Positions 1,867 through 36,500 of a stretch of 64,000 bases of DNA are shown piece by piece. The position numbers were made by a program, and so were the translations under genes. The number at the start of each line of letters is the position of its first letter. The stretch's first letter is position 1. Below the pieces are notes generated by a model. The model was not told where the DNA came from, did not search any database, and saw only the letters and a list, made by a program, of their open reading frames with translations. The DNA is from Catajapyx aquilonaris. Its lineage: Eukaryota. The DNA is taken from the NCBI GenBank assembly GCA_000934665.2, contig KZ538044.1, positions 1 to 64,000 on the forward strand. The letters are read 5' to 3'.

Positions 1867-2259
1867 GCGTGTAAAGAAATATAGTCTACGGTACTTTTCA
1901 AATGAACTGATGTATAAGTTACATTATGTTCACTTCTGCTTAAAATTCCTGCAACTGAAGGTATACGGAGGGAATTTATTAAAGCGCCATTTTGAGTTTT
2001 ATCTCATGTCGCAATACTATTTGTAAGTACTCGTATGTGCATAACTTTTTAATACCTCTAACAAACCATGCCCTTCATAGCATGGCTGACAAAGAAAACT
2101 GATTAATTTTATTAACACTATAGGCTTCTGCCCCCCTTTGAGTGCCGCAATGGAATAGAAAAGAACAACCCGAATGCGACAATACCCAGGGAGATTATTT
2201 TTATTGTGGGGTATTGTGTGGAGAACTGCGCACTACACTGTCGAGGAAGCTTTTCAGTC

Positions 2260-2322
2260 ATGGCATCCACGATGCACTCCAAGCGTTACTGCCTTCTTCT
2301 CTGTGTTTGGCTCTTTTCGTGG
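2260..2322 (+). CDS. Globin coding exon 1 (signal-peptide-like leader MASTMHSKRYCLLLCVWLFSW)
   Basis: ATG at 2260, 21 codons, donor TGG|GTAAGT at 2323 (phase 0). Joins in frame to the exon at 2629. Basic n-region followed by a hydrophobic core. Confidence 0.72.
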
Positions 2323-2628: not shown

Positions 2629-2747
2629 GTGCACTTGGGAAGCTGTGGTGAAGGAACTCTAGATCGAAATGACATCCGTGCCGTTAGAAAAATTTGGCGC
2701 TCAATAAAAGAAATCAAGAAGAAAACTGGATCCGCTATCTTTCTAGG
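2629..2747 (+). CDS. Globin coding exon 2 (end of leader, helices A-B)
   Basis: Acceptor CTCTTTTGCTACAG|. Encodes VHLGSCGEGTLDRNDIRAVRKIWRSIKEIKKKTGSAIFL(G), with the A-helix Trp and the B-helix G-x-x-I-F motif. Ends in phase 2 at GG|GCAAGT (GC donor), the conserved globin B12.2 intron position. Confidence 0.85.
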
Positions 2748-2792
2748 GCAAGTATAATGGTGAACGGAAGACGATGACTATTTTTTGTGTTA

Positions 2793-3302
2793 CAGGGCAT
2801 TTCATAATGACTCCGGCAGAGTTCTAAGGAGAACTCCTAGGCACCAAAGAATAATTGTATTATTATGTGGACGTGACATTTAGTGCTGGCAATCCGAGAT
2901 AATTCGCATTGAACAGAATAATACTTTACGCCATCTCCTGTGTCGGAGATATAGCCTCTGATACGTCCATCATCGTCTCCTTTTACACCTAATGAGATAA
3001 CATTCAAAATGGCATGATATATTTCAATTTGAAAAGTTACACGATGTTTTACACCTTATTGTGTTGAATGAAGCCCATTATCTCGGAAAGTAGAGCCAAC
3101 TGAGAGATGTATGCCTGGTTGCACCAACAAAATTACCGGTCCGATAGCTCCTAACAGACCGATAGCACATGTTAAAAGGTCTACCTATCTGTCCATTAGG
3201 AGCTATCGGACCGGTAATTTTGTTGGTGCAACCAGGCATTAGAGATCCTTAGTCCCCGGGAGTTCCACTAGAATGTTGCAGGAATCATAATGGAAAAACC
3301 TG
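2793..3302. mobile_element. Old, degenerate Tc1/mariner-type MITE inside the globin B12.2 intron
   Basis: TA|CAGGGCATTTCATAATGACTCCGGCAGAGTTCTAAGGAGAACTCC... versus the reverse complement of the right end, TA|CAGGTTTTTCCATTATGATTCCTGCAACATTCTAGTGGAACTCC... Alignable over about 55 bp with many mismatches. TA on both flanks. Confidence 0.55.
3111..3239. mobile_element. Young foldback MITE (perfect 44-bp inverted arms), possibly PIF/Harbinger-derived
   Basis: ATGCCTGGTTGCACCAACAAAATTACCGGTCCGATAGCTCCTAA (3111-3154) is exactly inverted at 3196-3239. Spacer of about 41 nt with partial further pairing. The superfamily assignment is tentative. Confidence 0.75.
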
Positions 3303-3344
3303 TATAGTGCTGTTTCCCATTAAACAATGTCAAATATTACATAG

Positions 3345-3570
3345 GTTATTCAATAAGTATCCGACATACCAGAAATTATTTTCCCACTTTGCTGACGTCC
3401 CGACCAATGAACTGGAAAATAACGAAGGTGTTCTCGTCCATGCTAATGCTATCATGACCATGATCTCTAACTGCATGGACAAATTGGATAAGACGTCAGC
3501 TCTGAAGGCACTTCTGGTCACATTGGGTCGACAACACATTTCAAGGAAAGTTGGGGTGCAACACTTCCAG
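3345..3570 (+). CDS. Globin coding exon 3 (heme-binding core, B12-G6)
   Basis: Acceptor ATTACATAG|. Encodes LFNKYPTYQKLFSHFADVPTNELENNEGVLVHANAIMTMISNCMDKLDKTSALKALLVTLGRQHISRKVGVQHFQ, with Pro C2, Phe CD1, distal His E7 (VHA) and proximal His F8 (RQH). Donor CAG|GTAAGT at the conserved G7.0 position. Confidence 0.95.
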
Positions 3571-3673: not shown

Positions 3674-3844
3674 CATTTGAAGGATGTGTTCATCGAAGTT
3701 TTGAAGACAGTAAAAGGCGTTAAGGTTACAGATAAAGATGAGAAAGCATGGAAAAATGTGTTGAATTTTATCGTTGGCTTCATCAGTGAAGGACTTACCA
3801 GCAATCAGCCCCTAATATTTGCAATCGACAAGGAAGAATCCTGA
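3674..3844 (+). CDS. Globin coding exon 4 (helices G-H, stop)
   Basis: Acceptor TTTCCAATCATAG|. Encodes HLKDVFIEVLKTVKGVKVTDKDEKAWKNVLNFIVGFISEGLTSNQPLIFAIDKEES*, with the H-helix AW motif. TGA at 3842-3844. Spliced CDS is 579 nt (192 aa). Confidence 0.92.
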   Translation, partial: HLKDVFIEVLKTVKGVKVTDKDEKAWKNVLNFIVGFISEGLTSNQPLIFAIDKEES

Positions 3845-4009
3845 AGCAAGGTAAACTAAGGGTACAAAGTGTACAATTTTCTGAAAGATTTGCCAGTAAT
3901 GTGCGCAGCAATGTGTGGAAATAGAAAATAATGGGTTCTTGTAGTGTCTATATGTATTTAAAATGTCATATATTTATGATGTAATATTATAACCTGATGT
4001 GCAGTCTTT

Positions 4010-4157
4010 TACTTCTGAGGTCCTCCTTCCGATCCCCGGCTGAAGATATGAATTTTTCATGGATCAATAGTGTCAACTGGTTCTCTCCGTGTTCGCAGAC
4101 GACTTTCTCGAGGTTCTCCAGTTTTCTTTCACTTAAATTTCAGCCATTAAAAATAAA
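4010..4157 (+). mobile_element. Decayed tRNA-derived SINE fragment downstream of the globin stop
   Basis: GAGGTCCTCCTTCCGATCCCCGGC resembles a tRNA T-arm/B-box region (GAGGTCCCGGGTTCGATCCCCGGC). GACTTTCTCGAGGTTCTCCAGTTTTC resembles the GGTTTTCTCCGGGTACTCCGGTTTCC core shared by many metazoan SINEs. Ends in an A-rich tail containing AATAAA. Confidence 0.4.
4152..4157 (+). terminator. Putative poly(A) signal of the globin gene
   Basis: First AATAAA seen downstream of the globin stop, followed by a T-rich tract near 4199-4208. Confidence 0.5.
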
Positions 4158-4202
4158 TGTCAGACTTATTTAAACAAGCAAGATTGAATCAGACAGTATT
4201 TT

Positions 4203-4208
4203 TTTATT
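4203..4208 (-). terminator. Putative poly(A) signal of the hexamerin-like gene
   Basis: TTTATT on + (AATAAA on -), about 70 nt past the stop codon at 4278. Confidence 0.7.
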
Positions 4209-4277
4209 GTCACATGAAAGGGCACATGTTCAGGTAAAACAGTGTGTGGAAAACGTTGGCTTGTCGGCAACAAGTGC

Positions 4278-5821
4278 TCAGTAGGCGGTTTCAATGTGCT
4301 TGACGACGACGTCAACGAACTTCATGTTCTGGGTCTGGAAGGCAGACTTGACGTATTGGCGGATGGGACGGTCGAAGGGGTAGCCCATGCTCCTGGCGAA
4401 GGGATAGGTGCCGTCGACCAGGCCGCACTGGGCGTAGGTGGGGATGTAGTGCTCCTCTGAGGCACTGACCACGACATCCTTCTCTTGCTGTTGCTGCTGG
4501 TAGAAGCGAGCCTGCTGCTGGTACTGCTGCTTGTAGATTGGCTGGTTCAGATACTGGTGCTTGTAGTGCTCCACGATCTCCTTCTCGGCATCGGTTACCA
4601 TGACCAGGAGGTTGAACTTGATTCCCTCTGGGGTGCCACGGGGCAGGAGGATGCTGCTGGGGATTCCGCAGCGGGGCTGGTTCTCCTGGACGTAGAAGAC
4701 TGCCTTGCCCTGCTTGGCGGCGACCACCTCCTCGATCAGCTGCTTGAAGCCCTGGCTCTCGGGGACAGTCAGGCTGGAGTCCTTGGAGGAGCGGCGGATG
4801 ACGGTCTCGCCCTGCTGGATCTCGGTGATAAACTTGTCCAGCTCGACGTAGTGCTGGCGCTGCTGGCTCAGGGGGATCTCGGCGCCATAGTGGTCGTACA
4901 CGGGGGCCAGGAATATGCGGACAAATGCCTTCTTCGCAGCGGTGGACCTGACCTTGATCACGTACTGGAAGCTCTTGTGGCGTAGGCGCTGGGTCTCCAG
5001 CTGCTGCACTGGACTGATCACGTTGTCCTCAGCAGGAACGGTGTTGGCGAGATCCACGTTGAACTTGTCCATGTAGGTAGTCAGTACGTTGCGGGTGGCC
5101 TCCTGCTCTCCAACGACCTCAACGGTCTCCACCTCAACGCCAGGGAACTCAAGCTCCTCGCGAGTGTATGGGGTCTGCTGGTTCTGGTAGCGCTGACCAA
5201 GCTGGTTGATGAGCTCGGCAATTCGGTAGTAGGCAGGCTCCCTCACAAAGGACTGGAAACCCCTGGCCTGCTGCTGCTGTTGCTGGGCATCACTGGTTGC
5301 GTAGAGAGCGTTGCGCAGGCTGCCGTAATACGAAGGATTAGGGCTGTTCTCGCAGGCCTGGACCATCTTTCCAAGAACGTCCATGCCACGGGTCTGGTCG
5401 AAGTAAACTGACTGGCCGTAAACGTCGCGGGCGTAGCCACTGTCGATGGCCTCCTGAATGCGACGCTCCCACTGCTGGATCTGCTGCACCTCCTCTGCTG
5501 GATAGCGAGTGTAACTGCCATAACCTTGCTGCTGCTGGAGCTGCTGCTGGATCTCAGTCTTCTGGACGGGGCCAATGACACCCTGACGCTCCAGCTGCTG
5601 GAGGAGCTGGGTCTGATCAACGGGGCTGACGTATCCCTGCTGCTCCCTTTCTTGTTCCTGGCGCTGGACCTGCTGGAGAAGAGAGGCCTTTTCGATGGAG
5701 TTGATTGCACCCTGCTGCTGGAGGCGCTCCAGGACCTCTGCCTTGGCAATGGGGTTGATGGCACCCAGCTGTTGCAGAACCTTGCGCACGATCTGTTCCT
5801 TCTGGACGGAACCACCAAAAC

Positions 5822-5912
<91 letters not shown>

Positions 5913-8900
5913 ATCAAGCTGCTGCTGGTACTGCTGCTGGGCTTCTTCCTTCTGGTTGGAGCCAATCACACCTTCCTCCTGAAGCTTCTGCAGGTAGGCG
6001 AGTTTCTGGATGGTGTAGTAAGTCTGCTGTTGCAGCCGGCGGTTGTCATTGTCAGATGCAGAAAAGTAGCCATTCTGTCCTTGCTGCTGCTGCTGGAGCT
6101 GCTGCTGGATCTGAACCTTCTGGACGGGTCCAATGACACCCTGACGCTGCAGCTGCTGGAGGAGCTGGTCCTGGTCCACGGGGCTGACGTAGCCCTGCTG
6201 CTCTCTTTCCTGCTCCTGGCGCTGAGCCTGCTCCATAAGTTCGACCTTCTCAGGGGAGCTGATGGCACCCTGCTGCTGAAGACTCTCCAGAACCTGGATC
6301 TTGGCAACGGGGCTTATGGCACCCTGCTGCTGGACGACTTGACGCACGATCTGTTCCTTCTGGACGGAGCCAGCAAGACCCTGCTGCTGTTGCTCCTGGA
6401 GCTGCTGTTGATACTGCTGCTGGGCTGCCTCCTTCTCGATTGAGCTGATCTTGCCTTCCTGCTGCAGCTTCTGGAGATAGGCGAGTTTCTGGATGGTGTA
6501 AAGAACCTGCTGTTGCTGGTATGCCTGCTCCCTTCCCGCTGGGTATCTGGATGAGGAGCCATAATAACTGCTAAATCCTTCATTCTGCTGCCTTTGGAGC
6601 TGCTTCTGGATCTGATACTTCTCGACGGGTCCGATCACACCCTGGCGCTCGAGCTGCTGAACAAGTTCGGCCAGGTCACCACGACTGACATAGCCTTCAT
6701 CCCTTTCCTGCTCCTGGCGCTGGACCTGCTGCAGAAGAGCTGCCTTCTCAGCAGGGTTGATGGCACCCTGCTGCTGAAGACGTTCCAGAACCTGAATCTT
6801 GGCGACCGGGCTGATGGCACCCTGCTGCTGCACTACCTTGCTCACGATCTGTTCCTTCTCAACGGAGTCACCCAAACCCTGCTGCTGCTGCTGCTGATCA
6901 AGCTGCTGCTGGTACTGCTGCTGGGCTTTCTCCTTCTGGACGGGACCAATTACACCTTCCCGCTGAAGCTTCTGCAGGTAGGCGAGTTTCTGGATGGTGT
7001 AGAAAACCTGCTGCTGCTGCTGGTATGTCTGCTGAAAGCGCTCCTCATTGCCAGAGGAAGGGAAGAAGAATCCTTTCGGTCTCTGCTGCTGCTGGAGCTG
7101 CTGCTGAATCTGAACTTTTTCGACGGATCCGATGAGACTCTGGCGCTCGAGCTGCTGCAGAATCTGGGCCTGATCAACGGGGCTGACATATCCCTGCTGC
7201 TCTCTTTCCTGTTCCTGACTCTGGACCTTCTGGAGAAGTTGGACCTCCTCGACACGAGAGATGGCACCCTGTTGCTGGAGACGTTCCACAACCTCAGCCT
7301 TGGCTTTGGGGCTGATGGCACCCTGCTGCTGCACGACCTTGCTCACAATCTGTTCCTTCTGGACGAAGCTGCCAACACCCTGCTGTCGAAGCTGATCCTG
7401 AAGTTGTTGCTGGTACTGCTGCTGGACTTCCTCTTTCTGGAAGGAGCCAATCACACCTTTCTGCTGAAGCTTTTGCAGGTAGGCGAGTTTCTGGATGGTG
7501 TAGTAAGCCTGCTGCTGTGGTACCTCTCCTTCGGTGGTGTAACGGTAGTAGCCATTGTAGCTGCCATATCCTTGCTGCTGCTGTTGCTGGAGCTGCTGCT
7601 GGATCTCAGTCTTCTCGACGGGGCCAATGACACCCTGACGCTCCAGCTGCTGCAGTATCTGGGCCTGATCAACGGGGCTGGCGTATCCCTGCTGCTCCCT
7701 TTCCTGTTCCTGGCCCTGGACCTGCTGGAGAAGAGAGGCCTTCTCGACGGAGTTGATTGCACCCTGCTGCTGGAGGCGCTCCAGGACCTCTGCCTTGGCA
7801 ATGGGGTTGATGGCACCCTGCTGTCGCAGAACCTTGCGCACGATCTGTTCCTTCTGGATGGAACCACCAAAACCCTGCTGCTGCTGCTGCTGATCAAGCT
7901 GCTGCTGGTACTGCTGCTGGACTTCTTCCTTCTGGTTGGAGCCAATCACACCTTCCTCCTGAAGCTTCTGCAGGTAGGCGAGTTTCTGGATGGTGTAGTA
8001 AGCCTGTTGTTGCTTCCGGCGGTTGTCATTGTCAGAGGCAGAAAAGTAGCCATTCAGTCCTTGCTGCTGGAGCTGGAGCTGTTGCTGGATCTGAGCCTTC
8101 TCGACGGGTCCAATGACACCCTGACGCTGCAGCTGCTGGAGGAGCTGTTCCTGGTCCACAGGGCTGACGTAGCCCTGTTGCCTCTCCTGCTCTTGGCTCT
8201 GGACCTGCTGCAGAAGTTCGTTCTTCTCGATGGAGTTGATTGCACCCTGCTGCTGAAGACGCCCCAGGACCTCGACCTTGGCTATGGGGCTTATGGCACC
8301 CTGCTGCTGGAGAACCTTACGCACGATCTGTTCCTTCTGGACGGAGCCATCAATATCCTGCTGCTGATCAAGCTGCTGCTGGTACTGCTGCTGTGCTTCC
8401 TCCTTCTCGATTGAGCTGATCTTTCCTTCCTGCTGCAGTTTCTGGAGATAGGCAAGCTTCTCGATTGTGTACAGGGATCCACGCTGCTGGTTTATCTGCT
8501 GCCTGAGCTCTTCCTTCTCGATGGTATTGATGATACCCTCCTGCTGCAGGCGCTCCAGAAGCTGCTCCTTCTCGATATCAGTCTCCAGCCCCTGTTGCTG
8601 CTGCAGTTGCTGCAGAAGCTCCAACTTTTCAATGGGGGTAGTAAAACCCTGATTCTGAGAATAGTATCCAGTGGAATAGCTCTGTCCGATGGAGGAAAAG
8701 TCGCGGGGGTCGTATCCGAAGCTCTGGACGAAGGGCAGGTTGCTGCTCAGGCGGGCCTGGTTGTAACGGGCGAGGGTCTGCTGGATGAAGTGGTAGAAGA
8801 GCTCTCCTTGGCGCTCCTGGCTCTGGCAATTCCAGAAGGGGAACTGCTTGTGGAAGATGTCGTGGAGCTGACCCAAGCCAACGTCGTCGGAATGGTAAGC

Positions 8901-8963
8901 GACAAAGCGCTGCTCGGGGTTGTAGTACTTGTAGGCGAAAGAGGTGGGGACCACCACTCCGTT
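4278..8963 (-). CDS. Hemocyanin-superfamily (hexamerin/pseudo-hemocyanin) exon 4: Hemocyanin_M domain split by a Gln-rich repeat insert, then the Hemocyanin_C domain
   Basis: Acceptor TTTTACTTCTAG| at 8964, then a 4686-nt open exon. Motifs: EQRFVAYHSDDVGL..HDIFH..FPFW..RQGELFY..QQTLARY..RLS (CuA region); WERRIQEAIDSG; YYGSL; REPAYYR; PYTREELEFPGV; RLRHKSF; VRIFLAP; VELDKF; CGIP..LLPRG; MGYPFDRPI; NMKFVDV. Confidence 0.96.
5510..8471 (-). repeat. Six coding tandem repeats (~474-510 nt; ~158-170 aa), Gln-rich
   Basis: Units start with YTI(E/Q)KLAYLQKLQ at 8471, 7997, 7502, 7001, 6500 and 6017. A partial unit lies at about 8472-8640. Confidence 0.95.
5823..5912 (-). repeat. Uninterrupted (CAG)30 coding microsatellite (poly-Gln)
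   Basis: 90 nt of pure CTG on + inside repeat unit 6. Confidence 0.95.
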
Positions 8964-9278: not shown

Positions 9279-9623
9279 CTGTCCTGCTCCAGCAGCACCG
9301 TAAGCCTGACTAAGGGCCTCAGGACCGAAGTAGTTTCCAGGAAGGACCTCGTAGGTCGGAGGGATCTTGAAATCCTGAGAGTCAGCGCGGTGCAGCAGTG
9401 CGGTGGTGTACGCGTACACGAACATGTACTCGTTCACACGCTGTCGGGCCCAGGCGGCAGTCTTGTGGAAGGTCTCCCAGTCCTTGGCCTGGTGCAACAT
9501 CTGGAAGAGGGTCACCATCTCCCGACGGTGGGATTCCTCCAAGACGTTGAAGGCAACGCCCCGGCGGAGAATCTGGCCCTGTTCCACCTGCTGCACGTAC
9601 TGCTGGATACGCTGCTCAGGTAC
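9279..9623 (-). CDS. Hexamerin-like exon 3 (Hemocyanin_N domain)
   Basis: Acceptor GGCATGTAG|, donor CAG|GTGAGC, 115 codons: VPEQRIQQYVQQVEQGQILRRGVAFNVLEESHRREMVTLFQMLHQAKDWETFHKTAAWARQRVNEYMFVYAYTTALLHRADSQDFKIPPTYEVLPGNYFGPEALSQAYGAAGAGQ. Contains the classic AKDWETFxKTAAWARxRVNExMFVYA motif. Confidence 0.95.
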
Positions 9624-9883: not shown

Positions 9884-10017
9884 ATTGTAATAGCTGGAGT
9901 AACGGGTGGGGTTGTAAGTGTCGGCGATCTCCCTCAGCTCTGCGTCCTGGATGGCCTGCTGGGGTCTGGTCAGAAGCTTGTAGATGGCATGTTGCCTGTC
10001 CAGGAAGTCCTGGTCGG
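9884..10017 (-). CDS. Hexamerin-like exon 2
   Basis: Acceptor TGTTCCACAG|, donor AAT|GTAAGT. Encodes (A)DQDFLDRQHAIYKLLTRPQQAIQDAELREIADTYNPTRYSSYYN, matching the ADxxFLxKQ-type start of hexamerin/hemocyanin domain 1. Phases (1 in, 0 out) fit the neighbouring exons. Confidence 0.9.
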
Positions 10018-10093: not shown

Positions 10094-10163
10094 CGATGGG
10101 ACGGGCCCACTGTCCGACGGCCACTCCGACCAGGAGGGCAAGAAACGCAACTGTCACTTTCAT
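10094..10163 (-). CDS. Hexamerin-like exon 1 (signal peptide)
   Basis: ATG at 10163. MKVTVAFLALLVGVAVG|QWARPI is a typical signal peptide. Donor G|GTAGGT, phase 1. Total CDS is 5235 nt (1744 aa). Confidence 0.9.
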
Positions 10164-10400: not shown

Positions 10401-13354
10401 GTTTGATATGTACTAGACATCTAAAGTACTAAGATGTTATTTTTTCTCTCTCCCCTCCCCCAGCCCACAATGTTATAAAAGCAGTAAGTAAAAAAATAGT
10501 GCAAGTTCTGAGCATATTAATTCAAATAGGTAGGATTGACTTGTTTTAAATGTATAACTTAAACACCTCTTTCAGAACATGTTGATAAACAACTTCGGCG
10601 ATATTTTTAGATACAAATGTCGTAGGGGTGAGGTTCCGTCGTTATCGTTTCCTCGATTGCATATTCAATTCACATACTCATAATTTTACGCTTGACTTGG
10701 TAAAACAATAATATGCGTTATGAGTCAGTAAAAGTGATCATTCGCGTAGAATGAACCAAGGTTATTGTCAAGTGATGTGTGTATATGCATGATGAGATCA
10801 GTAACTATGTCCATCTCTTTTATGCAGCCAATGAATCACAGTGTTTTATTCATCCACATACATATCTTTAATAATTGCGATAAGTTTATTATTGTATGCT
10901 TTTGCACAGGTGTCCAAAGCAGCGTATGTACGGTAACTCGTATACGGTAAGTTCATGCTTTATTATTTTGCAATGAATTTCTAAGCAGTAGAAAATAACT
11001 AGCTGGTGGTTCAATTGCCTGTTTTAATCCACATTTCCCCCTGACACTTGCAATCTCAGGAAATGTACATGTGACCATTGTTTGGGCCGAGACCCCTAGA
11101 TTTGGATTCACTGTTAGAAATAATGTAGTCTTCACAAATGAATGTTAGCATAATGTACTGTACAGTACGTAGTAAACATGACGGGGTGGATTAGGGGACA
11201 TGAACATTGTATAATAGCAATGCTGGACAGGTATAGTCTATGAGAAATCAGCTTATCAGCCTATGTCTATACAGATTGGCCTATAAAAAACCTTTATTTC
11301 ATGGGGCACACAGTTTTAAAAAAAGTAAAGGACATTGCCATCATGAAAGCAGACAGTGCTGTAAAAACCCAATCAGTGAGTCGAAAACAGAATGTCAGGA
11401 TTAGAAACTTTTTGTATACGCTTTTTATAAGTAAAATCACTTTGATCAGTGCATGGTGAACATATACCTGATCACGAGATTTACGTTAAAAAATAATTCA
11501 ATAAGTTGCTAATTATTACAGTGATTAGAAGTTGAATGAGTACTCACAAAATCAAACATCATTTTGCGACGGCATATGCAACAGGTATAAGTTTCAACCT
11601 AAAATATTTTAAAGGAAGTATTATTTTCGCTTTACTCGTATATGCCCTACAAAAATGTACAGCTCCAATGCTGATTCTTCTGATGAGCATGATTGCATCA
11701 GCACAGTTTTACATGATTGTATAGGGAATGAAATGCACTTTACGTAATATACCATATACGTAGCCTACAATAATAGTTAACAATGTTGACAATCTTGTGA
11801 TACGTTTGTTCTGAAATAATGTTTATTATGTGTCATCAATTATTGCAGTAAAGGTATGTTCATCCTATAGCATTTCCGTCCCTTCCAGAGAAGATATGTC
11901 GCAGCATTACTTTACCTTCAAGTAATTTTGCGCATCACAAAGTATGGGGAAAAACTGAGTCAGTTTTAAGTTATTGGCAAAGTTTATTTCAAAATAAAAT
12001 AGTAAATTTCGAACATCACCTTTCTACCTCCTCCAACAAAGTAACAAGTCTTATTTTTGCATCATTTTATGTTGCACGTGATCAGAAGGAGGATCAGAAT
12101 GACGTGCAGTTCGTACCAAAGCGGATTAAAAATCACGAATCATTGCGTAACGTTTGCATGATGAACATTATCATTCTTTAGGATACAAAGTGCAGAGCTT
12201 AATGCATTCTACAAGATACAAGGTAATGACATCCCACAATCAATTAAGATACACATACACATAAGAAAACCGCTAATGCAAATTATTGTAAGGCTGACGG
12301 AGGCGAAAGGGTATTTAGAAAAATACTCGCCAAGGTGCAAGATATTAGTAAGCAATATAATTAATGCCAGTTTGGATAAAATATTAACATGAAATGCAGA
12401 ATGATCAGAACTCTGATGTAATCATATGAAGGTGAAAGTGATATTTTGGTGAAAATCTAGTAAAGAAATATATTTGTGTAACGTATAGTCCACGAATCGT
12501 CTTTTAAAGTATTTTCTGCTACAACAGTTACAATTGGGAAAAGATCATCCCACAAAGGATTATGCAATCTTAATACTTCAAATTCCCCTATCTCAAAATA
12601 AGTATGTGACTCTGATCTCTCTGAATTTTAGGTTTTAAATATGGTGCATTTGAGCAAAGTGCCATGAATTCAGAAAGTGAGAATTTTGAGTTCTGATAGC
12701 TTTGATAACGTCACACGTATACCTCACTAGCCATTCAAATCCATTCCGTGAAAATATGCCGTGTCGGAAATATTCTTATTTTCGTTTTAGACGACAGAAG
12801 TACACTACAGAGAAAATAGTACCGTATAGGCTACAATCGCTACATCCTAATAAAGGAAAAAATAAATTTCCGTAATTGATAACTTGCAGTCTGAAGAAGA
12901 TAAGGTCAGTTACAGGCAGCATGTCGCGTTTTTGGCAATGTTTTCTGGATTATAACATTATTTTCATTCCTCAAAATATTTATAAGAGATCACAGATAGC
13001 ACTGTAACCTTGGAAAACAGTACGAAAGCACATAATCCTTGCATGTTTTTAACCTTCGTTTGAACCAAGCGTCACATCTGTCAAATACATTTACAAGTAC
13101 AAGTAGTTATTAATTCAAAAGGTTCATATCTTTTGTACGTCCCATTTACATAATTATCTTAGACATTATTTTCTTCAATTATGTATTTTTATTTTGCGTT
13201 TTGAGCAAGTATAGTCTCGCTGCAGTTTCATTTTTATTTTATATTTTTATTCTACATTCTATTCATAATTCAATTTCATACGTTGCTCCTATAATCCACA
13301 AATGGAAACCGGATGTAAGACGATCAGAATAAGTAAAATTCAAGGTACCGTATG

Positions 13355-13423
13355 CAGGGGCGGATCCAAGGGGGGGGGGGNCATGACCCCCCCCCCCCAA
13401 TCGAAAGTCTGGATCCGCCCCTG
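13355..13423. mobile_element. Tiny hAT-like MITE with 8-bp target-site duplication
   Basis: 14-bp TIRs CAGGGGCGGATCCA / TGGATCCGCCCCTG. Identical 8-bp flanks ACCGTATG (13347-13354 and 13424-13431). The interior is poly-G/poly-C with an N, so the true length is uncertain. Confidence 0.85.
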
Positions 13424-15039
13424 ACCGTATGACAAACACATAATGCAGTATGATGCCGCACTTTCATAAGAAGCAGTCCATCCATGCTGCACTCAGTAGC
13501 TAGGGCAAGGGGCGGTCACACATCTAGAAGGAGATGAATATAGCAACCTATTATTTTTTATGCTACATAGATGATCAGACTATCTCAAAAGGCGGCTATA
13601 TGCCATATGAAGACTTTTACTAAAAAATTTCGGCACATAACTGTTATCCTTTTCTGCGACTCTGAACAGGATGCCATCATAATACAGAATTGACATGTAT
13701 TAGCCTACGTCCAAGTAGGGGAGAATGGGCCAGGCAGTGTTGCCAAAATTTGACAACGGGTCAGCTACTAGTAGCATATACCGGTATTTATTTCATAAAC
13801 TATTGTATGCATTTGTGCCTATATTTATTCCACAGGCATACTTAGTTAGTTGAGGAATGATTATTTTTATATGGGAATAACAGTTTTAGAGATGTCAGGT
13901 GTGCATGCACATGTACGTATATTGTCAGCCAACAGTCTATCTTTAAGAAATCTGCCCATACATGTATGCATTGGTTATACCGTAATCACCAGCTTTACCG
14001 AAACCTGAGAGAAATGAAGTGCGATTCCCACTGAATATCAAGAGAGGAAAAGCGACAGAATGACATATATTTTTGAAAACCGACTGAAAGAAATTTGCTC
14101 AGTCCAACATTTTTGTTTCAAGTTTTCATTCATACTGCCCATACTTGTCACGTACCTGATTGAGAGTTGATAAAACTAATTAAAATCACTTCATTACTAG
14201 TTATCTGGTTACGATTATTATTTTAATGTCGGACTATAATTGGTGTTAGATCGCTTGATCCACACGTGCTGCATAGTAAGTAGTCTATGTAATATGCAGA
14301 TACTCAAACTGAAGTGCAAATAATGACTTCACAGTTTAGTCTGCATATGGCTTATGTGCATATTCTCATTTACATCCACAGATAAAAATATTTTCAATAT
14401 AGGCCTAACATTGTCGATAATATGCGGCATAGATGCGGCACGATGTTCTATCAATGCCAGCCAAGCGGGAGTTCCGGACTTCAAATCCAGTTCCCCTCAC
14501 CTTTGCTTAGTCCGGTCTTTTTCAGCCTTTGTACCGACGTGACCGTGCAGAACTGCCTCCATTCCTTGCCCCATTCTCTCCCCAGGACCATGAGAAAATA
14601 TCTGACATTTCGAAATGACTCGAAAACTACCTAAGTTCGTTGTGAACCTTCCCATCTCCCCTTAACTTCAGCAGATTACATATTTGTTATTATTTTCGCA
14701 ATCCTACTTCACACATTTTAAAGCACCAGTGTACCTTTAAAAATCGCTTAAAAATGTACCAATCGATCAGTAGAACTCTCGAACGATTCCCTCCCCATTT
14801 CTCATCATTCCCCTAAGAACCCCGATGTCTCTGACCTGCTGCATCTTCCATCCCGATATGAAATAGAGCCAACTCCTCGGTTATCAATCAGAGCAACGTG
14901 GGTGGCGCATCCCCCTCCCGGGCACCACCCGACCCAACCAGTGTTTCCCCCTACCGACCCACACCCAAACCTTTCTCTCTTATACCCCCCACTCCATGCC
15001 CCTTCCCCCAACCACGCTCCGGAAAGCCCGGCGGCCAAG

Positions 15040-18300: not shown

Positions 18301-19813
18301 CGGGCCAGGCCACTAATTGGGCTTTTTAGTGATTAATGGTCAGTAATGAATATGTAAAAGTTGAAAACGCGGGCTCGCCTGCAGCCTGATAAAAAAAAGG
18401 GACGGCTCTAGCTCTTGGAGGGTCGCGAAATTGAAGGTTACACTGTGTTACCACCTTTCCAAAATGCTACCATTTGCAGCGTAACTGGAGTAATTACATG
18501 GGAGAAGTTGGAGGTAATGAGCTGATCATAAACTAGGTTGCATAAACAAAAAAAAGTGACGTGCATTGCGGCGTTTGGATCTTTTGCTGTGCAGGTACAG
18601 AACAAATTTACGTTGAGCGTAGTTGCTATTTTAAAATCGCATGATAAAGAACCCGAGTGGTATGAGTTATTTAAAAAAGGATGCATTATGCAAGTTCATG
18701 AATAGAAACTGACATTTTAAAATTTAGTGGAGGTACAGTATAGTGTGCATTACGTTTGCACGTTAAGCATGATAATGCCGTGTGAATATGAGCCTACTTT
18801 AACGCGTGAGATAAAGGCTACTTGAGCTACGTTAGCCATGCTAGTCTGCGAGCACACTACCCTACTGGTAAGGTAAATTTAAAACCAACATCACTAAAGT
18901 GCTACGAGGGACGTAAGCGCACCTATTAGAGAATACTCGCTGCCTCTAATGCAGTATTAACTTATCTGAGAACACACTCTCATGTTGGAGAAAGTAATTT
19001 TTAAAAATTTCGACTGTCAATGACATAATTATAAATACATTGCCATTAAAATATTGAAGCTCTGTAAATGGTTACAGAAGTTACATAATCTGAATATTAT
19101 TATTTAACAATTATGATACGGTGCAGTTGCACTACAGGCCAGGATGCAGGATGCACTGTGGTCATACACATTGCATTGAGGAAATGCCAGATTACTACCT
19201 AACAATGCGAAGTCCACGGCCATGGACTGGTTTTAACGTGGCGTGGCGGCGGGCTCGGCCTATAATTCGGGAACGCCACCGCTCGTTAGGCTTGTCGCTG
19301 TCGTCTCCAACAAATGGCGTGGGTTAAGCAGCGTTCCGGTAACCAATCGGAAGACAATTATCAGGCAGAGTTCTTGGGGACAAGCACTGCCATTAGTAAT
19401 GGGGCGGGTTTTAATTCCCGGCAGCAACAAATTGGACTCACTTGATTGGTGGGTCGCGGCTGGGAAGTTGGCGCCGGTCGCCCCGGGGCAGGAAGCCCCA
19501 AGGGCCATTTGACCCTTTGGCATGCAGTAATGGATCGCCAGGGGCAATGCCATTCTACTCCGACCCCAATTGGGATCCCGCAGAGTTGCGGCGTCTTTTG
19601 CACTCGCTGGGAGGTAAATGGAGTTTGACACTTTTGCAATCCTGCAAAAGGAGGGCTGGATGCTCCAAATGTAATTATTTCCCAAGATTGTTTTACCTTT
19701 TCCAATCTCAGCGTGTCGTACATAGCCTATGAGAAGGCAATGAGCTATTTCACTGCAACAAAAGAAGTTTTTAATTACATATTATTATTATTATTCGTTA
19801 AGGACTGGGGCGG

Positions 19814-30594: not shown

Positions 30595-33500
30595 AAGAGG
30601 AAGAGGAGGTTGATCCTCCAAATTCTCCATAGAAGACGATGCTGAAGAAAAACGCGGCTCCTTTCAAGCTCGCCGCAAAAGGAACTTGAACCATCCACCT
30701 TTTAACTCCCCCACAAAATGCTGCGAATGGAAGTTAATTTGCATAGCGTTTCCCTCCTCAAAGCCATGTTTTTCTTGGCAAAACACTCCCGATAATGATA
30801 TGCCTCTTCTCCCCCCCCCCTCTTTTTTTATACCCACCAGATAGGAGCCCCGGAGGCGGAATCACCAAAGAGAAGACCAAAGAAATCTCGTGATTTATAC
30901 GCTTACACAGTTTGGGGTCCGGGATTTCCAGCAGGAAATCGCATTAGGACGGCAGTACCAGACTTAATCACGGTTGGCACAACTCAAAAAGACCAGGCTC
31001 AAGTCTCAAATCTTTAGCCAATAATACGATAGATCCTAATACTGCAAACTTTTCAAATCATGGGATCGAATTTTTTCGAAAATTCGACCCATGGTTACTA
31101 ATTCATTTGAGACCGCAGATAATTTTTTGAAAATGATTCAAGTGTAATGGGATAGTTGCATAAAACAAGTCTTGGCTCCAGTTCACATGAGCTGTCCAAT
31201 CCGTATCCGGAGAATTATCACTCTTTTATAGCCGGGCTTCTCTGGCACTCCCCGGATTCCCTCCCGCCATTTGTTTGCGGTTTAAACCCGGATTCGGCTC
31301 CTCTTTTACAGCGTCATGCATGTCCGACCGTATTTCGCGTCCGAGCTGCTACTTGCCTGGATTTCAGGATTCCAATTCTGGGTTGGGCCAGCACAGATAT
31401 GTACCAAAAAATGACCTGGTTTTTAACATGAAATGTGTAAACACCGCGGGGTGATTTTTAAACATTTCAGAGGGTGGCTAATTGGAACATTGTATGTTAA
31501 TGAGACGGGGCTTGTACCTGTACTGACGATTGGATCGTGAAATTGTTCATAAGTAGCGCGTAATGTGTGCAGGGTCCAATCAGTGTTGGAGTTCAAAAAG
31601 GTCAAAATTCAATTGTGATTAGAACTTTTCATGAATGTATTTTCTACATGTAAACCTTTAGAAATTATTTGTTCCACTATTCCGAGAGTACGTACACTAT
31701 TCATACAGACATAGAGCAGTACCTACTGTACAGTACCTGCAGCCACTTTCGCAGTTGAAAAAAAAGTCTATTTTCTAACAGAAAAAAACTACTATTTCCA
31801 CAACGAACAAATCGGAGAAAAAGCACTCTTTGAGTATAAGGTAAACTCGTTTGAAGCGTGTATGACGTACTGTGCTGTACTAACGCGATGCAGTGCTCAT
31901 TCAAAGGCACACACAAAAAAGTTTAACAACACTGTATTTGCTACGATATAAAGCTGCTGCGCTACATTGCGTTGATGGAATCAGGACTGCCAATACTGTT
32001 ACCGTGAATCCAGTAATTTCATTAGCTTTGCCTGTTTGTCACGAAATGATTATGGACTCTGTAATGGACAAGTTTTTTCCCCGTATATGTAGAGGTGGAT
32101 TTGTGGTATCGCATCGTCACGTATGCACAAGGCTTCAATGATGGCATAGTTAAGTGGGAATGTTCGATGAGGAATAATTTTGATATATTCTTTGTATAGT
32201 ACAAGTTAAAGACTTTATATAGATTAGTTGCTTCAGTCGAGATAAAAACTCCACATTTAAACATAATTCCTCTGAGATAACCTGTCCATCAGAAGGGAAA
32301 TTAAAGTACTGTGTTAGGACGATAATGCCTGAGAGTGAGAGTCTTGCGCCATGTACACGACACGTTTGACACGAACGATTATACACCTGGACACACAATA
32401 CTGTCACCATGGACCAGCAATGTCACTCTGTCCGTTCAACTGAGCTGTCCATTTAACGGTACAGCAGGGACGAGACTCTCCGTGGAGTGACGGCCGACAC
32501 TGAGCCAGACTTAGCCTACCCCGTGTAATGTATAATGGAAGATACTCGTGTACCTCTGAAAAACTCGGCCAACCTGCCCGAGTTAGTTGAGTCATATCGT
32601 GCATCGGGTGCGTGCTTCTGCTGCAAGTGATGGGTGTGGGCTCGAGATAGGCCACATGCATAAATAAATAATGTCCGCATATGCGTATCGTACCGTGATA
32701 CTGTCCAGTCTGTCACTCCGAGTGAATTTGTCTGCCTCAGTATTGAGAAATAATAAAATGGGGGGCGAGGGTCCATGAATCTAGCCCTAGAAATAATAAT
32801 GACCAAAGAAAGGGACCATTACAATGTATTATCGGTTCCAAAACGTTTTTGAACCGATTTTACAGTGACGAGTAAAATGAGTAAGAAATATGCGACGTAG
32901 AAAACTAGCCTAATCTAAAATTGCTTCAACTAAAACCAGTTAACAACTTACTGGCACTAAAGCCGAAAATCTGGGCCATACATACCCGTACAATGTTCAC
33001 GTTACAGACCTAATGCACGGTAGTAGTCCCTAGTCGCCATGAAAAAACCTGCCCGTGCTTGACCTACATTGTCTTTTTTTAATTAGCCATTTTAAAGCCC
33101 AAAGGCTCCAGCATCTCTTGATTTTCCAACTCCTTTGAGTAACCCTACTGAGTAACATCCTAAGCACACAGGCTGTTAGTAACTGAATCCATATTTATCT
33201 ACATCAGGAAGTATAGTCCCGAGCAATCCCAACTGTGGGCTGGTCCTGACCCACATTATATTTGCTCCCAGTTTTACATAGAACCATATTGATCCCACAA
33301 AGTTGGTCGCATTTTGTCCCTCGTATGTTGTGGTCCCGCCATTTATTTTCTCGGGTGATGCTGCTAGGGGATGGATGCCATAGCTCCAGGCAGAATCCGG
33401 TATACTGTAGGTCTTCATTAGGTGGTGAGAGATGGAAATCCTTCCATCTGTGTGCCCCCGGGTCCAGGAATCCGGGTGGGCTCGATTCACCATCCATCGA

Positions 33501-36500
33501 TCGTTCTTTCCCAACAGAATCCGGGCCCAGCTCCTTATCGGGCCCGTTTAAAGTCTCCATTAGTCCTCCCGGAGCATCTTATCTCACGACCAAACCACTT
33601 TTGCTTGGCCTTCCAAAGCCATCCATAACGCAGGTTTTTGGGGAGGTCCAACCCCTCAGGAAAGAAGAGTATCTGGAATTTGCTGGGGGGTGAAGTGTCC
33701 GGAATAAGCAAGTTTATTCGGACGAAGCCTAATTCCAATCCAGGAGATGTCGATGGTGTAGAAATAGAATCAGAAAATCAGAAGAAAATATTTTGGTAGA
33801 GTGATTGGATAGCACTTGGTGCTGCCATCTGAGTCACTTGCAGGGAGTGCTTTTCTGGATTGCCATAGTAAGAGTATGAAATATGGCGTCGGAAAGCACT
33901 TTTTCCCCAGGAGGAGGAGCATTGTAATTCAAATGAGCATTTTTGGGGGGAGCAGTTTTTTAAAGTACTGGTACTGGTGCACCCTCGGGGGTAAGCCTGT
34001 CAAAAATAATAAAATAGCAGCGACAGAGAGGGAAGGGAGAGTTATGTTGGTGCCTGGAGATGATTTCACTCAAAAAATATGGAATGTGTAGGCCTATATA
34101 CTATGTTTGCATAATTAAGCTGTTGCGCATACCTCCTGGGCTAGGAGTTATTTGATGACATCGGATCACTCACCTAACTAGGTAAGGTATATTAATCCTT
34201 CTTAATTCACCGCCTGTACAGGCTAAATCAACAGCGTATCAAATGGTGTACATAGACCACCTTCCTCTGCATTCAGCCGCAGCAGATTGTTTCACCTAGG
34301 GAATAATGTACGTTATAATTACCAGTGAAAGGCAAGACTGCAATGAATTACATAGAGTAACAAAAATAATTTAGTGACGCTCATGATTGCAGCAAGAAAC
34401 ATTAATGCGAAATAATGTAAAATGCACAATTTAAAGTTACTCCTTGTGAAATTTTCAAACCTCTATGGCTGTAAAGTTCTCTGTATGGTCTGTAAAGTTA
34501 CTGGATGTTAAAGAGAAGGGTGTTTAAAGTTCCTCTAATCCTCCCTCCAGGAAAAATTCCCCGTATCAAGAGGACATGTGCAATTAAGTAGCCTACTAAA
34601 ATATTCCGTCATTATTCATTGCGGCATATTTTCAGTGTAATGAGGATATACCTTGGGATATACTGTACCTATAGTTAGACTAGAGCAATTACGGTCAGTT
34701 TAGATTTGACAAGCCTTTTTCAAAAATGTTTGTGTCACAACTAGACTGGTTATAAACACTTACGTAAACACTGCTTTTTCTGAGTCACGTCGCATTTAGT
34801 TACTGCAAGTGCCGGCACATACTGGTATATTTTCAGAGCTTTAGGTTCCAACAATATGTGACTCGCAGCTAACAGTTTTCTACTCCCCAAGCCAATGCAT
34901 TTTATGCAGCTATTCATAACATTTCTAAACCTATAATGCTTCGTGCTTTAATTCCCATGTGTACCTGTACTAGTAATTAATGCTCTAAATATTACATAAA
35001 CATCCAATTATCGCATCTGCGAGCATCATCCTGTTCACAATTCGCCATGGTGTCAGGATACTATACTCTCATAATGCCCCGATCCCCCCAAATGTTGAAG
35101 TGTCCCTTTTTGAAAATTAATGGAAGCAGTGTATAAACTTTTGCGGATACTCAGGACTACATGGCAATAGCCTTCCGGGCTTTTCTGCTGTACCTCCACG
35201 TGCTCGTGGGGTTTGGAGTGCACCGCACCGTATAATTATGTGAACCAAGTGTGTGAAGGCCAAAAGCTTAAAACCACGTTCATACAGTGTAGGCCATATT
35301 ACACTACTATTCAGTTTAACATGATACCTTTTCATAAACCGGTACCAGCGTTAGACCGCTTGCATACTCCTTTCAAACGTTAGAAATTCATATGCTCCTA
35401 GTCATTTATGTTCTGAAGGAACTCCTCCATATTCATTCCTACAACCGATCTCACGGCTCCGAATGGCCAAGTTTGAGTCTTGGAAGCGTAAGGTGGAAAA
35501 AAAAGAGTGTGTTTGGATTTACGTGTCAAATAAGAGGGAGACTCGTGGTTGACATTCCCAAAACTATGTTTGTCCCGTCCACACTCTTGAGTGCTTGCGG
35601 GAACCTGTGGGAAGGAAAAGAAGCCCACCCTGAACTGACCTCGCTGTCCCCACAAAGGTGTTGACAACTCTCGACACTCCGATCAAATGTGCTCCCCAGT
35701 CCGACCACCAGCTCATTCAAACTTCAAGGGGAATTGGGTTTCCCAAACTTGCAGCTCGACTCGAGATTCAACCTCAGAGGCTTCCAGTTTGCACAGTGCT
35801 GGCCTGGGCCGTTACCCCTACCCAAAAGTTGATGGCCACTCAGGATGCAGCACACCAGCAAACGCTTGCCCACATTGTCTGTTGTGGTATTAAACTTGGG
35901 ATTCTCATGGGAAATACACGGATATCGGGAAGCACAAAGGATACCCGTTGTATCATCTCAAGTGAAGAAAATCTCCTATTATGCAGGACTCTGTGCTTTA
36001 AATACACGCACATAATCAGGCAGAATCGCTAATTTGCTTAGACACAACAGGGTCTTAATTATATACTGTACTTGCATTTGTACTTGGAATGGCCTGCCAG
36101 TTTAACAAAAATTACATACGCCCATCATGGATTCAGATGCAAAATGTCAACCCAATTGTATGCATACAATGGCTTGAAACATAGGACAAAAACCCTTTCA
36201 GAAAAAACTACTGCAATGCATATGAGCTAAAAATGTGGGCGTTGACTCTACTCGTTAGGCCTAAGTACAGTACAATTCCGTCGGCCATTTTTATCATATG
36301 CACTGAGTTCTTGACAGTTGACATTCAACGATTGATGCGGAGACAAGTAGACTGTTAACAGCACAACACGCAGCGAGAATGAATACGTCGACAGCACAAT
36401 TAAGCGCCTATAAATTCTGCATGATGAATAACAAAGGCTCTTTGACCGGACCCCTCTTTTTTAACGTGTCATGCGTTTTACATTTGCCGATTTAAACGTC

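Follow-up and report, generated by a model that had tools for sequence, protein, structure and literature searches.

Convergent gene pairs with a short intergenic distance form a described class (PMC6993858, PMC10491648, PMC2851598), of which the cited cases come from yeasts, Arabidopsis and a software survey. Here we describe such a pair in Catajapyx aquilonaris, located near the start of a 64,000-nucleotide stretch (contig KZ538044.1 of GenBank assembly GCA_000934665.2, positions 1 to 64,000 of the forward strand; hereafter the window), in which a globin gene on the plus strand and a hemocyanin-family gene on the minus strand (called the hexamerin gene below for brevity) lie tail-to-tail. 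Both genes are new members of known families and their arrangement is of a known kind. We consider it probable that they are an ordinary convergent pair with a compact shared termination zone, adjacent by chance.

Described relatives exist for each partner. On the globin side, introns at B12.2 and G7.0 are the standard arthropod globin architecture according to the available text of PMC7457136. The arthropod haemoglobin-like (HbL) globins treated there (Prothmann et al. 2020) have the globin fold, the E7 and F8 histidines and these two introns, lack a central intron and form a fast-evolving class. In the same source, the cores of the membrane-bound, acylated Globin X (GbX) and GbXL proteins are about 67% conserved in arthropods, GbXL also has B12.2/G7.0, membrane attachment is proposed to be ancestral for arthropod globins, and Chironomus globin genes are mostly intronless or carry E-helix introns. 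On the hemocyanin side, the honey-bee storage protein HEX 110 has a 291-aa Glx-rich insert in its C domain, with 20.9% Glx (available text of PMC2861669).

Two convergent genes and their probable shared termination zone

The globin stop codon (TGA, 3842-3844, plus strand) and the hexamerin stop codon (TGA, 4280-4278, minus strand) enclose 433 nt with 36.7% GC, all coordinates having been read from the sequence and checked by script. The poly(A) hexamer AWTAAA occurs in this stretch only at 4146 (ATTAAA) and 4152 (AATAAA) on the plus strand, and on the minus strand only as the following feature:

4203-4208, minus strand: presumed hexamerin poly(A) signal AATAAA, 69 nt after the stop and the sole minus-strand AATAAA between the hexamerin stop and the globin body.

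The opposing AATAAA signals (4152-4157, plus; 4203-4208, minus) are 45 nt apart. A preliminary description of this DNA had already proposed a tail-to-tail pair with stops about 430 bp apart and facing signals about 45 bp apart at these positions, and both measurements agree with ours. The window as a whole shows no enrichment of AWTAAA (174 occurrences, 150.8 ± 12.7 in shuffles), and the inter-stop stretch is AT-rich, so that a single hexamer per strand in 433 nt is not improbable by chance; the telling feature of both hexamers is that their orientation and position are right for each gene.

The RNA-derived evidence consists of assembled contigs from one public run (X1, run type not recorded), some of which are spliced. 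A 760-nt spliced globin contig ends at 4179, 22 nt beyond the globin AATAAA; a further 24 nt separate this end from the opposing signal. For the hexamerin gene, no 3′ end was seen among the X1 contigs, none of which spanned 4180-4263, and this gap weighs neither way. The depth in the bin 4157-4277 is wholly accounted for by two contigs, one stopping at 4179 and one starting at 4264, so that touching or overlapping cleavage was seen from the globin side only. The earlier claim of abutting or overlapping cleavage sites accordingly holds on that side, the hexamerin 3′ end being unseen. As for sequence shared between the mature transcripts of the two strands, the contigs of this run supply a globin transcript that reaches 4179.

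The hexamerin gene presumably uses the AATAAA at 4203-4208. If so, cleavage 10-30 nt downstream would fall at about 4193-4173, and the globin and hexamerin mRNAs would be expected to end within about 15 nt of each other, either touching or overlapping by a few bases. On the opposite strand, the AATAAA region of each gene reads as a T-rich tract just past the expected cleavage site of the other, so that the termination zone may serve both genes.

The depths of the contigs on the hexamerin gene differ sharply along its coding sequence (CDS). Over 4278-5003, contigs of 95-100% identity attain depths as high as about 9.4 × 10⁴, and the sole contig listed over 5004-5556 has a depth of 59. The drop in depth beyond 5003 suggests that very highly expressed paralogues have no more than its last ~725 nt in common with the hexamerin CDS, and gene conversion or a partial duplication could account for this. 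The contig starting at 4264 continues with 21 letters foreign to the window; considered as an exon of the 3′ untranslated region (3′UTR) of this locus, this loose end was rejected, as a search of the window allowing up to 3 mismatches did not find it, and it more likely belongs to a paralogue or allele with a different 3′UTR. Contig depths cannot rank genes, and a co-expression reading is limited to the exact-match contigs found for both loci in one run.

A zone of this geometry could also set the two genes against each other. Read-through from the storage-protein gene, or an overlap of the 3′ ends, would hamper the globin by transcriptional interference or by an mRNA duplex, and globin output would then drop as storage-protein synthesis peaks. 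The 45-nt spacing of the signals and the reach of the globin mRNA to 4179 fit this mechanism, as do the contigs near depth 9 × 10⁴ on the last ~725 nt of the hexamerin CDS, which mark the family as very highly expressed; mRNA duplexes of short-spaced convergent genes have moreover been described in yeasts (available text of PMC6993858). However, the overlap itself was unobserved, and the contigs listed include none antisense to the globin 3′ exon, contigs being unable to show strand. The high depths seem to belong to the paralogues, given the modest depth of the only contig listed over 5004-5556, and the zone has no unusual RNA structure: a hairpin was rejected after folding of 4135-4220 on both strands gave z values of -0.35 and +0.26. 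We regard such antagonism as improbable.

The plus-strand gene encodes a globin with a signal-peptide-like leader exon

The globin gene starts with an ATG at 2260 and has five exons, with a CDS of 579 nt for a protein of 192 aa (21.8 kDa, pI 9.35) and no internal stops. The 760-nt contig, whose length equals that of the model mRNA, confirms the joints 2322/2629, 2747/3345, 3570/3674 and 3850/4020. The gene comprises the following features:

2245..2322, plus strand: globin exon 1; contig start near 2245, ATG at 2260; encodes MASTMHSKRYCLLLCVWLFSW, a signal-peptide-like leader.
2629..2747, plus strand: globin exon 2; pre-A segment and helices A-B, ending after the second base of codon B12.
3345..3570, plus strand: globin exon 3; helices B-G, with the distal His E7 in VLVHANAIM and the proximal His F8 in TLGRQH.
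3674..3850, plus strand: globin exon 4; helices G-H, stop TGA at 3842-3844, then the first 6 nt of the 3′UTR.
3851..4019, plus strand: globin 3′UTR intron; 169 nt, GT-AG (GTAAAC...TCTGAG), beginning 6 nt past the stop; contig joint 3850/4020.
4020..4179, plus strand: globin terminal 3′UTR exon; ATTAAA at 4146-4151 and AATAAA at 4152-4157; the contig record covers 4018-4179 and ends at 4179.

At the first joint (2322/2629), 77 nt of the contig lie on the exon-1 side and the intron is GT-AG. The second joint appears in the contig record as 2746/3344 with 2 ambiguous letters, which is compatible with a GC-AG intron at 2748-3344 (GCAAGT...ACATAG). This intron splits a Gly codon after base 2 and the third intron is of phase 0; the two correspond to B12.2 and G7.0 as defined in PMC7457136, with helix positions read against myoglobin numbering, and a central intron is absent. 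A GC-AG boundary, confirmed by the spliced contig, therefore lies at the conserved B12.2 globin intron (2748-3344, plus strand). With the 169-nt 3′UTR intron removed, the mature 3′UTR measures 166 nt; this intron was absent from the preliminary description, as was the insert in the hexamerin described below. The bins over the 3′UTR intron and intron 3 have a depth of ~9, whereas the spliced contig has 61; unspliced or retained-intron RNA could explain the signal in these bins. Inside intron 2 lies a 129-nt hairpin (3111-3239; 55-nt arms at 95%) resembling a miniature inverted-repeat transposable element (MITE); the contig depth of ~43 over this element, with a T>C difference at 3204, probably stems from genomic copies elsewhere.

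Globin exon 3 alone matched the Pfam Globin family (PF00042) at 4.2e-15 (56.7 bits, cutoff 22). It keeps both E7 and F8 His, which aligned to the matching His of 1hlb, 6q6p and 1hlm (sea-cucumber haemoglobins and a cytoglobin). A HMMER search of 1.84 billion representatives returned 132 proteins at E ≤ 1e-3, the best single-domain relatives sharing 36-42% identity over exon 3. Among the 10 of these 132 that were looked up, named members in the relatives' clusters were a pseudoscorpion 'CYGB', scorpion and tick 'globin-like' proteins and a mealybug 'cytoglobin-1-like' protein, and longer, multi-domain matches were a Mytilus protein, with an 'extracellular globin-like' member in its cluster, and an uncharacterized 1,842-aa protein. 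A word-indexed search of exon 3 against longer proteins gave no match at E ≤ 0.001 among 25 candidates.

The leader consists of a basic n-region (K/R), a hydrophobic core of about 12-15 residues and then the small residues G-S-C, and MASTMHSKRYCLLLCVWLFSW together with the following VHLGSC|GEG is arranged in n-, h- and c-regions like a cleavable signal peptide. Its top Kyte-Doolittle 11-mer scored 2.39, compared with 2.89 for the hexamerin leader. It is encoded on a separate exon, and this exon is present in the mRNA contig. From this leader the globin is likely to be secreted, so that the 'secreted haemoglobin' of the preliminary description stands as a canonical globin (Pfam match, E7 and F8 His), its secretion being a prediction from the leader exon. 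Alternatively, the hydrophobic N-terminus might be a membrane anchor or go unused, with the globin acting at membranes like its acylated relatives. In favour of this, nine relatives were inspected (seven of them single-domain globins), and several of the nearest single-domain ones carry MG-type acylation motifs at the start or within, a clear hydrophobic or signal leader being found in none; the ancestral membrane attachment proposed in PMC7457136 points the same way. The core of ~12-15 residues, preceded by K/R and followed by G-S-C, is nevertheless that of a cleavable signal peptide, unlike a 20-residue anchor, and the MG start is absent from the present globin. A non-secreted globin is thus a minor possibility, and we think it unlikely.

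Comparison with the described globin classes narrows the placement. Several best matches have the MG-type N-termini of GbX/GbXL and the present gene shares the B12.2/G7.0 introns of GbXL, but its product starts with MAST... instead of MG and the gene is without the E10.2 intron; with an identity of at most 42%, far below the ~67% among GbX/GbXL cores, it is not a GbX/GbXL orthologue. The predicted signal leader is a likeness to the extracellular haemoglobins of chironomids and branchiopods. Branchiopod haemoglobins are multi-domain, whereas the present globin is single-domain, and close similarity to either group was unseen (chironomid-type 1x46, E 0.0076); the gene structure also differs from that of the Chironomus genes. 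Fold, E7/F8 histidines, B12.2 and G7.0 introns and the missing central intron all agree with the HbL globins, and the low identity (≤42% over exon 3) is as expected of that class. Differences from HbL globins are the extra 5′ leader exon in place of the acylation motif, the GC-AG donor at B12.2 and the 3′UTR intron. We infer that the gene encodes a divergent HbL-type globin that gained a leader exon.

The minus-strand gene encodes a hemocyanin derivative lacking four of six copper ligands

The hexamerin gene has an ATG at 10163 and four exons (10163-10094, 10017-9884, 9623-9279 and 8963-4278) separated by GT-AG introns, with a TATAAA at 10246-10241 (minus strand) about 80 nt upstream of the ATG. 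It encodes a protein of 1,744 aa (201.5 kDa; 22.8% Gln, 8.0% Glu) with no internal stops. The model of exons 1-3 is based on reading frame, Pfam and splice signals, the RNA contigs concerning exon 4, to which the exact-match contigs 4314-4403 and 4951-5556 belong. The exons are as follows:

10094..10163, minus strand: hexamerin exon 1; encodes MKVTVAFLALLVGVAVGQ..., a signal-peptide-like leader.
9884..10017, minus strand: hexamerin exon 2; start of Hemocyanin_N (Pfam 0.003, under the curated cutoff), in a frame that joins exons 1 and 3 stop-free.
9279..9623, minus strand: hexamerin exon 3; Hemocyanin_N, all-alpha (Pfam 3e-28), with GT-AG introns on either side.
4278..8963, minus strand: hexamerin exon 4; 1,561 codons plus the stop, containing the CuA part of Hemocyanin_M, the insert, the CuB part of Hemocyanin_M, and Hemocyanin_C.

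Exon 4 is a single open frame that matched Pfam Hemocyanin_C at 1.5e-61 and Hemocyanin_M at 5.6e-28 in two stretches. Among 24 distinct sequences of solved structures, the best relatives were decapod hemocyanins (6l8s, 1.7e-59; 1hc1, 1.4e-58), followed by chelicerate hemocyanins, phenoloxidases and insect storage proteins. At the positions of the copper ligands H190, H194, H220, H340, H344 and H380 of 6l8s, the query has H, H, I, R, Y and A. The ligand list follows the Panulirus numbering; shifted by a constant -4, each of its six positions coincides with a His of 6l8s. Two of the six ligands are kept, and none at CuB. The hemocyanin had been called copper-less from the start, and the N, M and C domains with only 2/6 copper-ligand His bear this out.

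The closest database protein, P0003, is a 425-aa fragment with 67% identity and the same R/Y/A at the three CuB positions, and the best named match was a dipluran hexamerin (Campodea hexamerin 1) with 33% identity. When metagenomes were scanned with the C-terminal 415 aa, 596 pattern stretches matched, none of which was confirmed. To judge from its sequence, the product is a copper-less hemocyanin derivative of storage-protein type (hexamerin/pseudohemocyanin-like), and it may belong to the hexapod hexamerins or to the crustacean pseudohemocyanins, the best named match being dipluran and the best solved relatives decapod. It may be a hexameric storage protein of the haemolymph, as its leader and the high depth of contigs from the family would suggest. 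With hexamerins, pseudohemocyanin and cryptocyanin it shares the N, M and C domains, the loss of most copper His, the leader and the very high transcript abundance of the family, but with 1,744 aa it is about 2.5 times as long as the usual hexamerin of ~680 aa.

A glutamine-rich repeat insert enlarges the middle domain

The additional length resides in one insert, which lies away from the paired 3′ ends and is the most unusual feature of the locus:

5490..8708, minus strand: Gln-rich insert; exon-4 residues 86-1158, in Hemocyanin_M between the CuA and CuB sites.

Its limits were taken from the alignment of query residues 8-85 and 1159-1466 with residues 165-245 and 282-592 of 6l8s, so that 1,073 residues replace about 36 of the shrimp hemocyanin, a net gain of ~1,036 aa. 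The insert is 30.4% Gln and is built of six units of 158-167 aa (~165) at 5523-8468, each a run of about 20-residue helix-like sub-repeats. At the DNA level, identity is 96% between units 2 and 6, 88% between units 1 and 5 and 76-85% for the remaining pairs, which suggests a recent duplication of a multi-unit block. The exact-match contig 4951-5556 crosses the 3′ boundary of the insert, showing that it is transcribed in frame. In unit 6, TRF detected a (CAG)39 tract on the coding strand (5823-5939), translated as over 30 consecutive Gln; the corresponding place in the near-identical unit 2 holds only six. The expansion is likely young and possibly polymorphic. The insert matched no Pfam family and gave no usable match in the ESM Atlas, and AlphaFold2 modelled 181 aa around unit 3 as eight helices with low confidence (mean pLDDT 43.6).

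HEX 110-type hexamerins are the nearest described parallel, being hemocyanin-family storage proteins likewise enlarged by a Gln/Glu-rich insertion, and an ant hexamerin 110 (P0002) was recovered as a relative. In contrast to the bee protein, the insert here measures ~1,036 aa, lies in the M domain instead of the C domain and consists of six ~165-aa units, with 30.8% Glx. The identity of 27% indicates that it was gained independently of the HEX 110 enlargement. A third independent mode was seen in P0001, a metagenomic hemocyanin-family protein of 1,716 aa, in which a Gln-rich repeat extension of ~1,100 aa stands at the N-terminus. Taken together, the C-domain insert of HEX 110, the N-terminal extension of P0001 and the M-domain insert described here show that Gln-rich enlargement arose independently at different sites.

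Interpretation of the adjacency

On the reading we prefer, the locus would consist of two independent, intact, transcribed genes that converge and have one compact termination zone in common. The plus-strand gene would supply a divergent haemoglobin-like globin that keeps the haem-pocket hallmarks and whose leader exon probably sends the product into the secretory pathway; the minus-strand gene would supply a roughly 200-kDa copper-less storage-type hemocyanin derivative with a huge Gln-rich repeat insert in its middle domain. As in other convergent pairs with abutting or overlapping 3′ ends, the genes lie on opposite strands, their stops are 433 nt apart and their poly(A) hexamers face each other within 45 nt; unlike the known overlapping pairs, only the globin end (at least 4179) was seen here. 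Close 3′ ends are common among convergent genes, and convergent genes share no promoter. Chance adjacency, with no function beyond shared termination, is preferred because there is no shared promoter, because copper-less derivatives are widespread irrespective of globins, and because short-spaced convergent pairs have been described as a class.

Several observations weigh against mere chance or against the zone as drawn. A globin beside a hemocyanin-family gene is nominally unlikely, at about 1% per genome by a rough estimate that was not computed. Both products have secretion-type leaders, so that a shared haemolymph context is possible, and exact-match contigs for both genes occur in the same run. 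In addition, the hexamerin 3′UTR was unrecovered and one contig diverges at 4264, and the true 3′ end could lie elsewhere.

The nominal improbability of finding two small families side by side, the two leaders and the exact-match contigs in one run would also fit a functionally coupled haemolymph locus under selection, through co-regulation, through the globin taking over O2 carriage, or through the globin riding on the hexamerin. The loss of 4/6 copper ligands in the hemocyanin relative, next to an intact globin pocket, adds to this. Yet the arrangement comes from a single genome and from convergent genes without a shared promoter, and no known haemolymph O2 carrier was among the nearest globin relatives. 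Copper-less hemocyanin derivatives are, according to the available text of PMC2861669, common storage proteins in arthropods without a respiratory globin, and no literature linking a globin to a hexamerin was found. We judge functional coupling to be very unlikely. The most far-reaching scenario would be a conserved pancrustacean respiratory and storage micro-locus, in which a membrane-associated globin turned secreted beside a former hemocyanin that had become a Gln store, with the 45-nt terminator alternating their outputs with moult or oxygen; of the possibilities considered here, we give it the least credence.

A functional inference from the adjacency is thus unsupported, and chance adjacency of an ordinary convergent pair is the reading we retain; the identities of both genes are supported and have been sharpened. 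As it stands, the value of the locus is descriptive. It provides a verified model of a single-domain globin that bears a leader and whose gene has GC-AG boundaries at the B12.2 intron and a further intron in the 3′UTR, and a hemocyanin derivative enlarged about 2.5-fold by a Gln-rich repeat insert at a site unlike that in bee HEX 110. Should the linkage prove to be conserved, the locus would be a rare case of two unrelated O2-carrier superfamilies that are physically associated, and a possible way to study respiratory-pigment switches across arthropod lineages.

Surroundings of the gene pair

The GC content of the window is about 42%, and a GC-rich block occupies 4-9 kb. A tblastn search found no second globin or hemocyanin copy in the window. 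From 10.3 to 64 kb (53.7 kb), none of 210 stop-to-stop open reading frames (ORFs) of at least 65 aa had a Pfam match, the scan covering 24 of the 26 ORFs of at least 110 aa and all 186 of 65-109 aa; the two ORFs left out (19361-19726 and 33204-33578) overlap scanned ones, and genes of short exons could escape such a scan. No Rfam match was found beyond 10.3 kb. The gene-free stretch of 48 kb reported previously is a fair description at this resolution, its length being about 53.7 kb.

Upstream of the globin gene there is a MITE-like inverted repeat at 1127-1560, with 114-nt arms of 91% complementarity, and another at 416-1033, with 37-nt arms at 81%. At 13340-13425, a palindrome composed of a poly-G run, an N and a poly-C run is flanked by inverted GGATCC-containing arms and resembles an assembly join or the hairpin of a repeat element.

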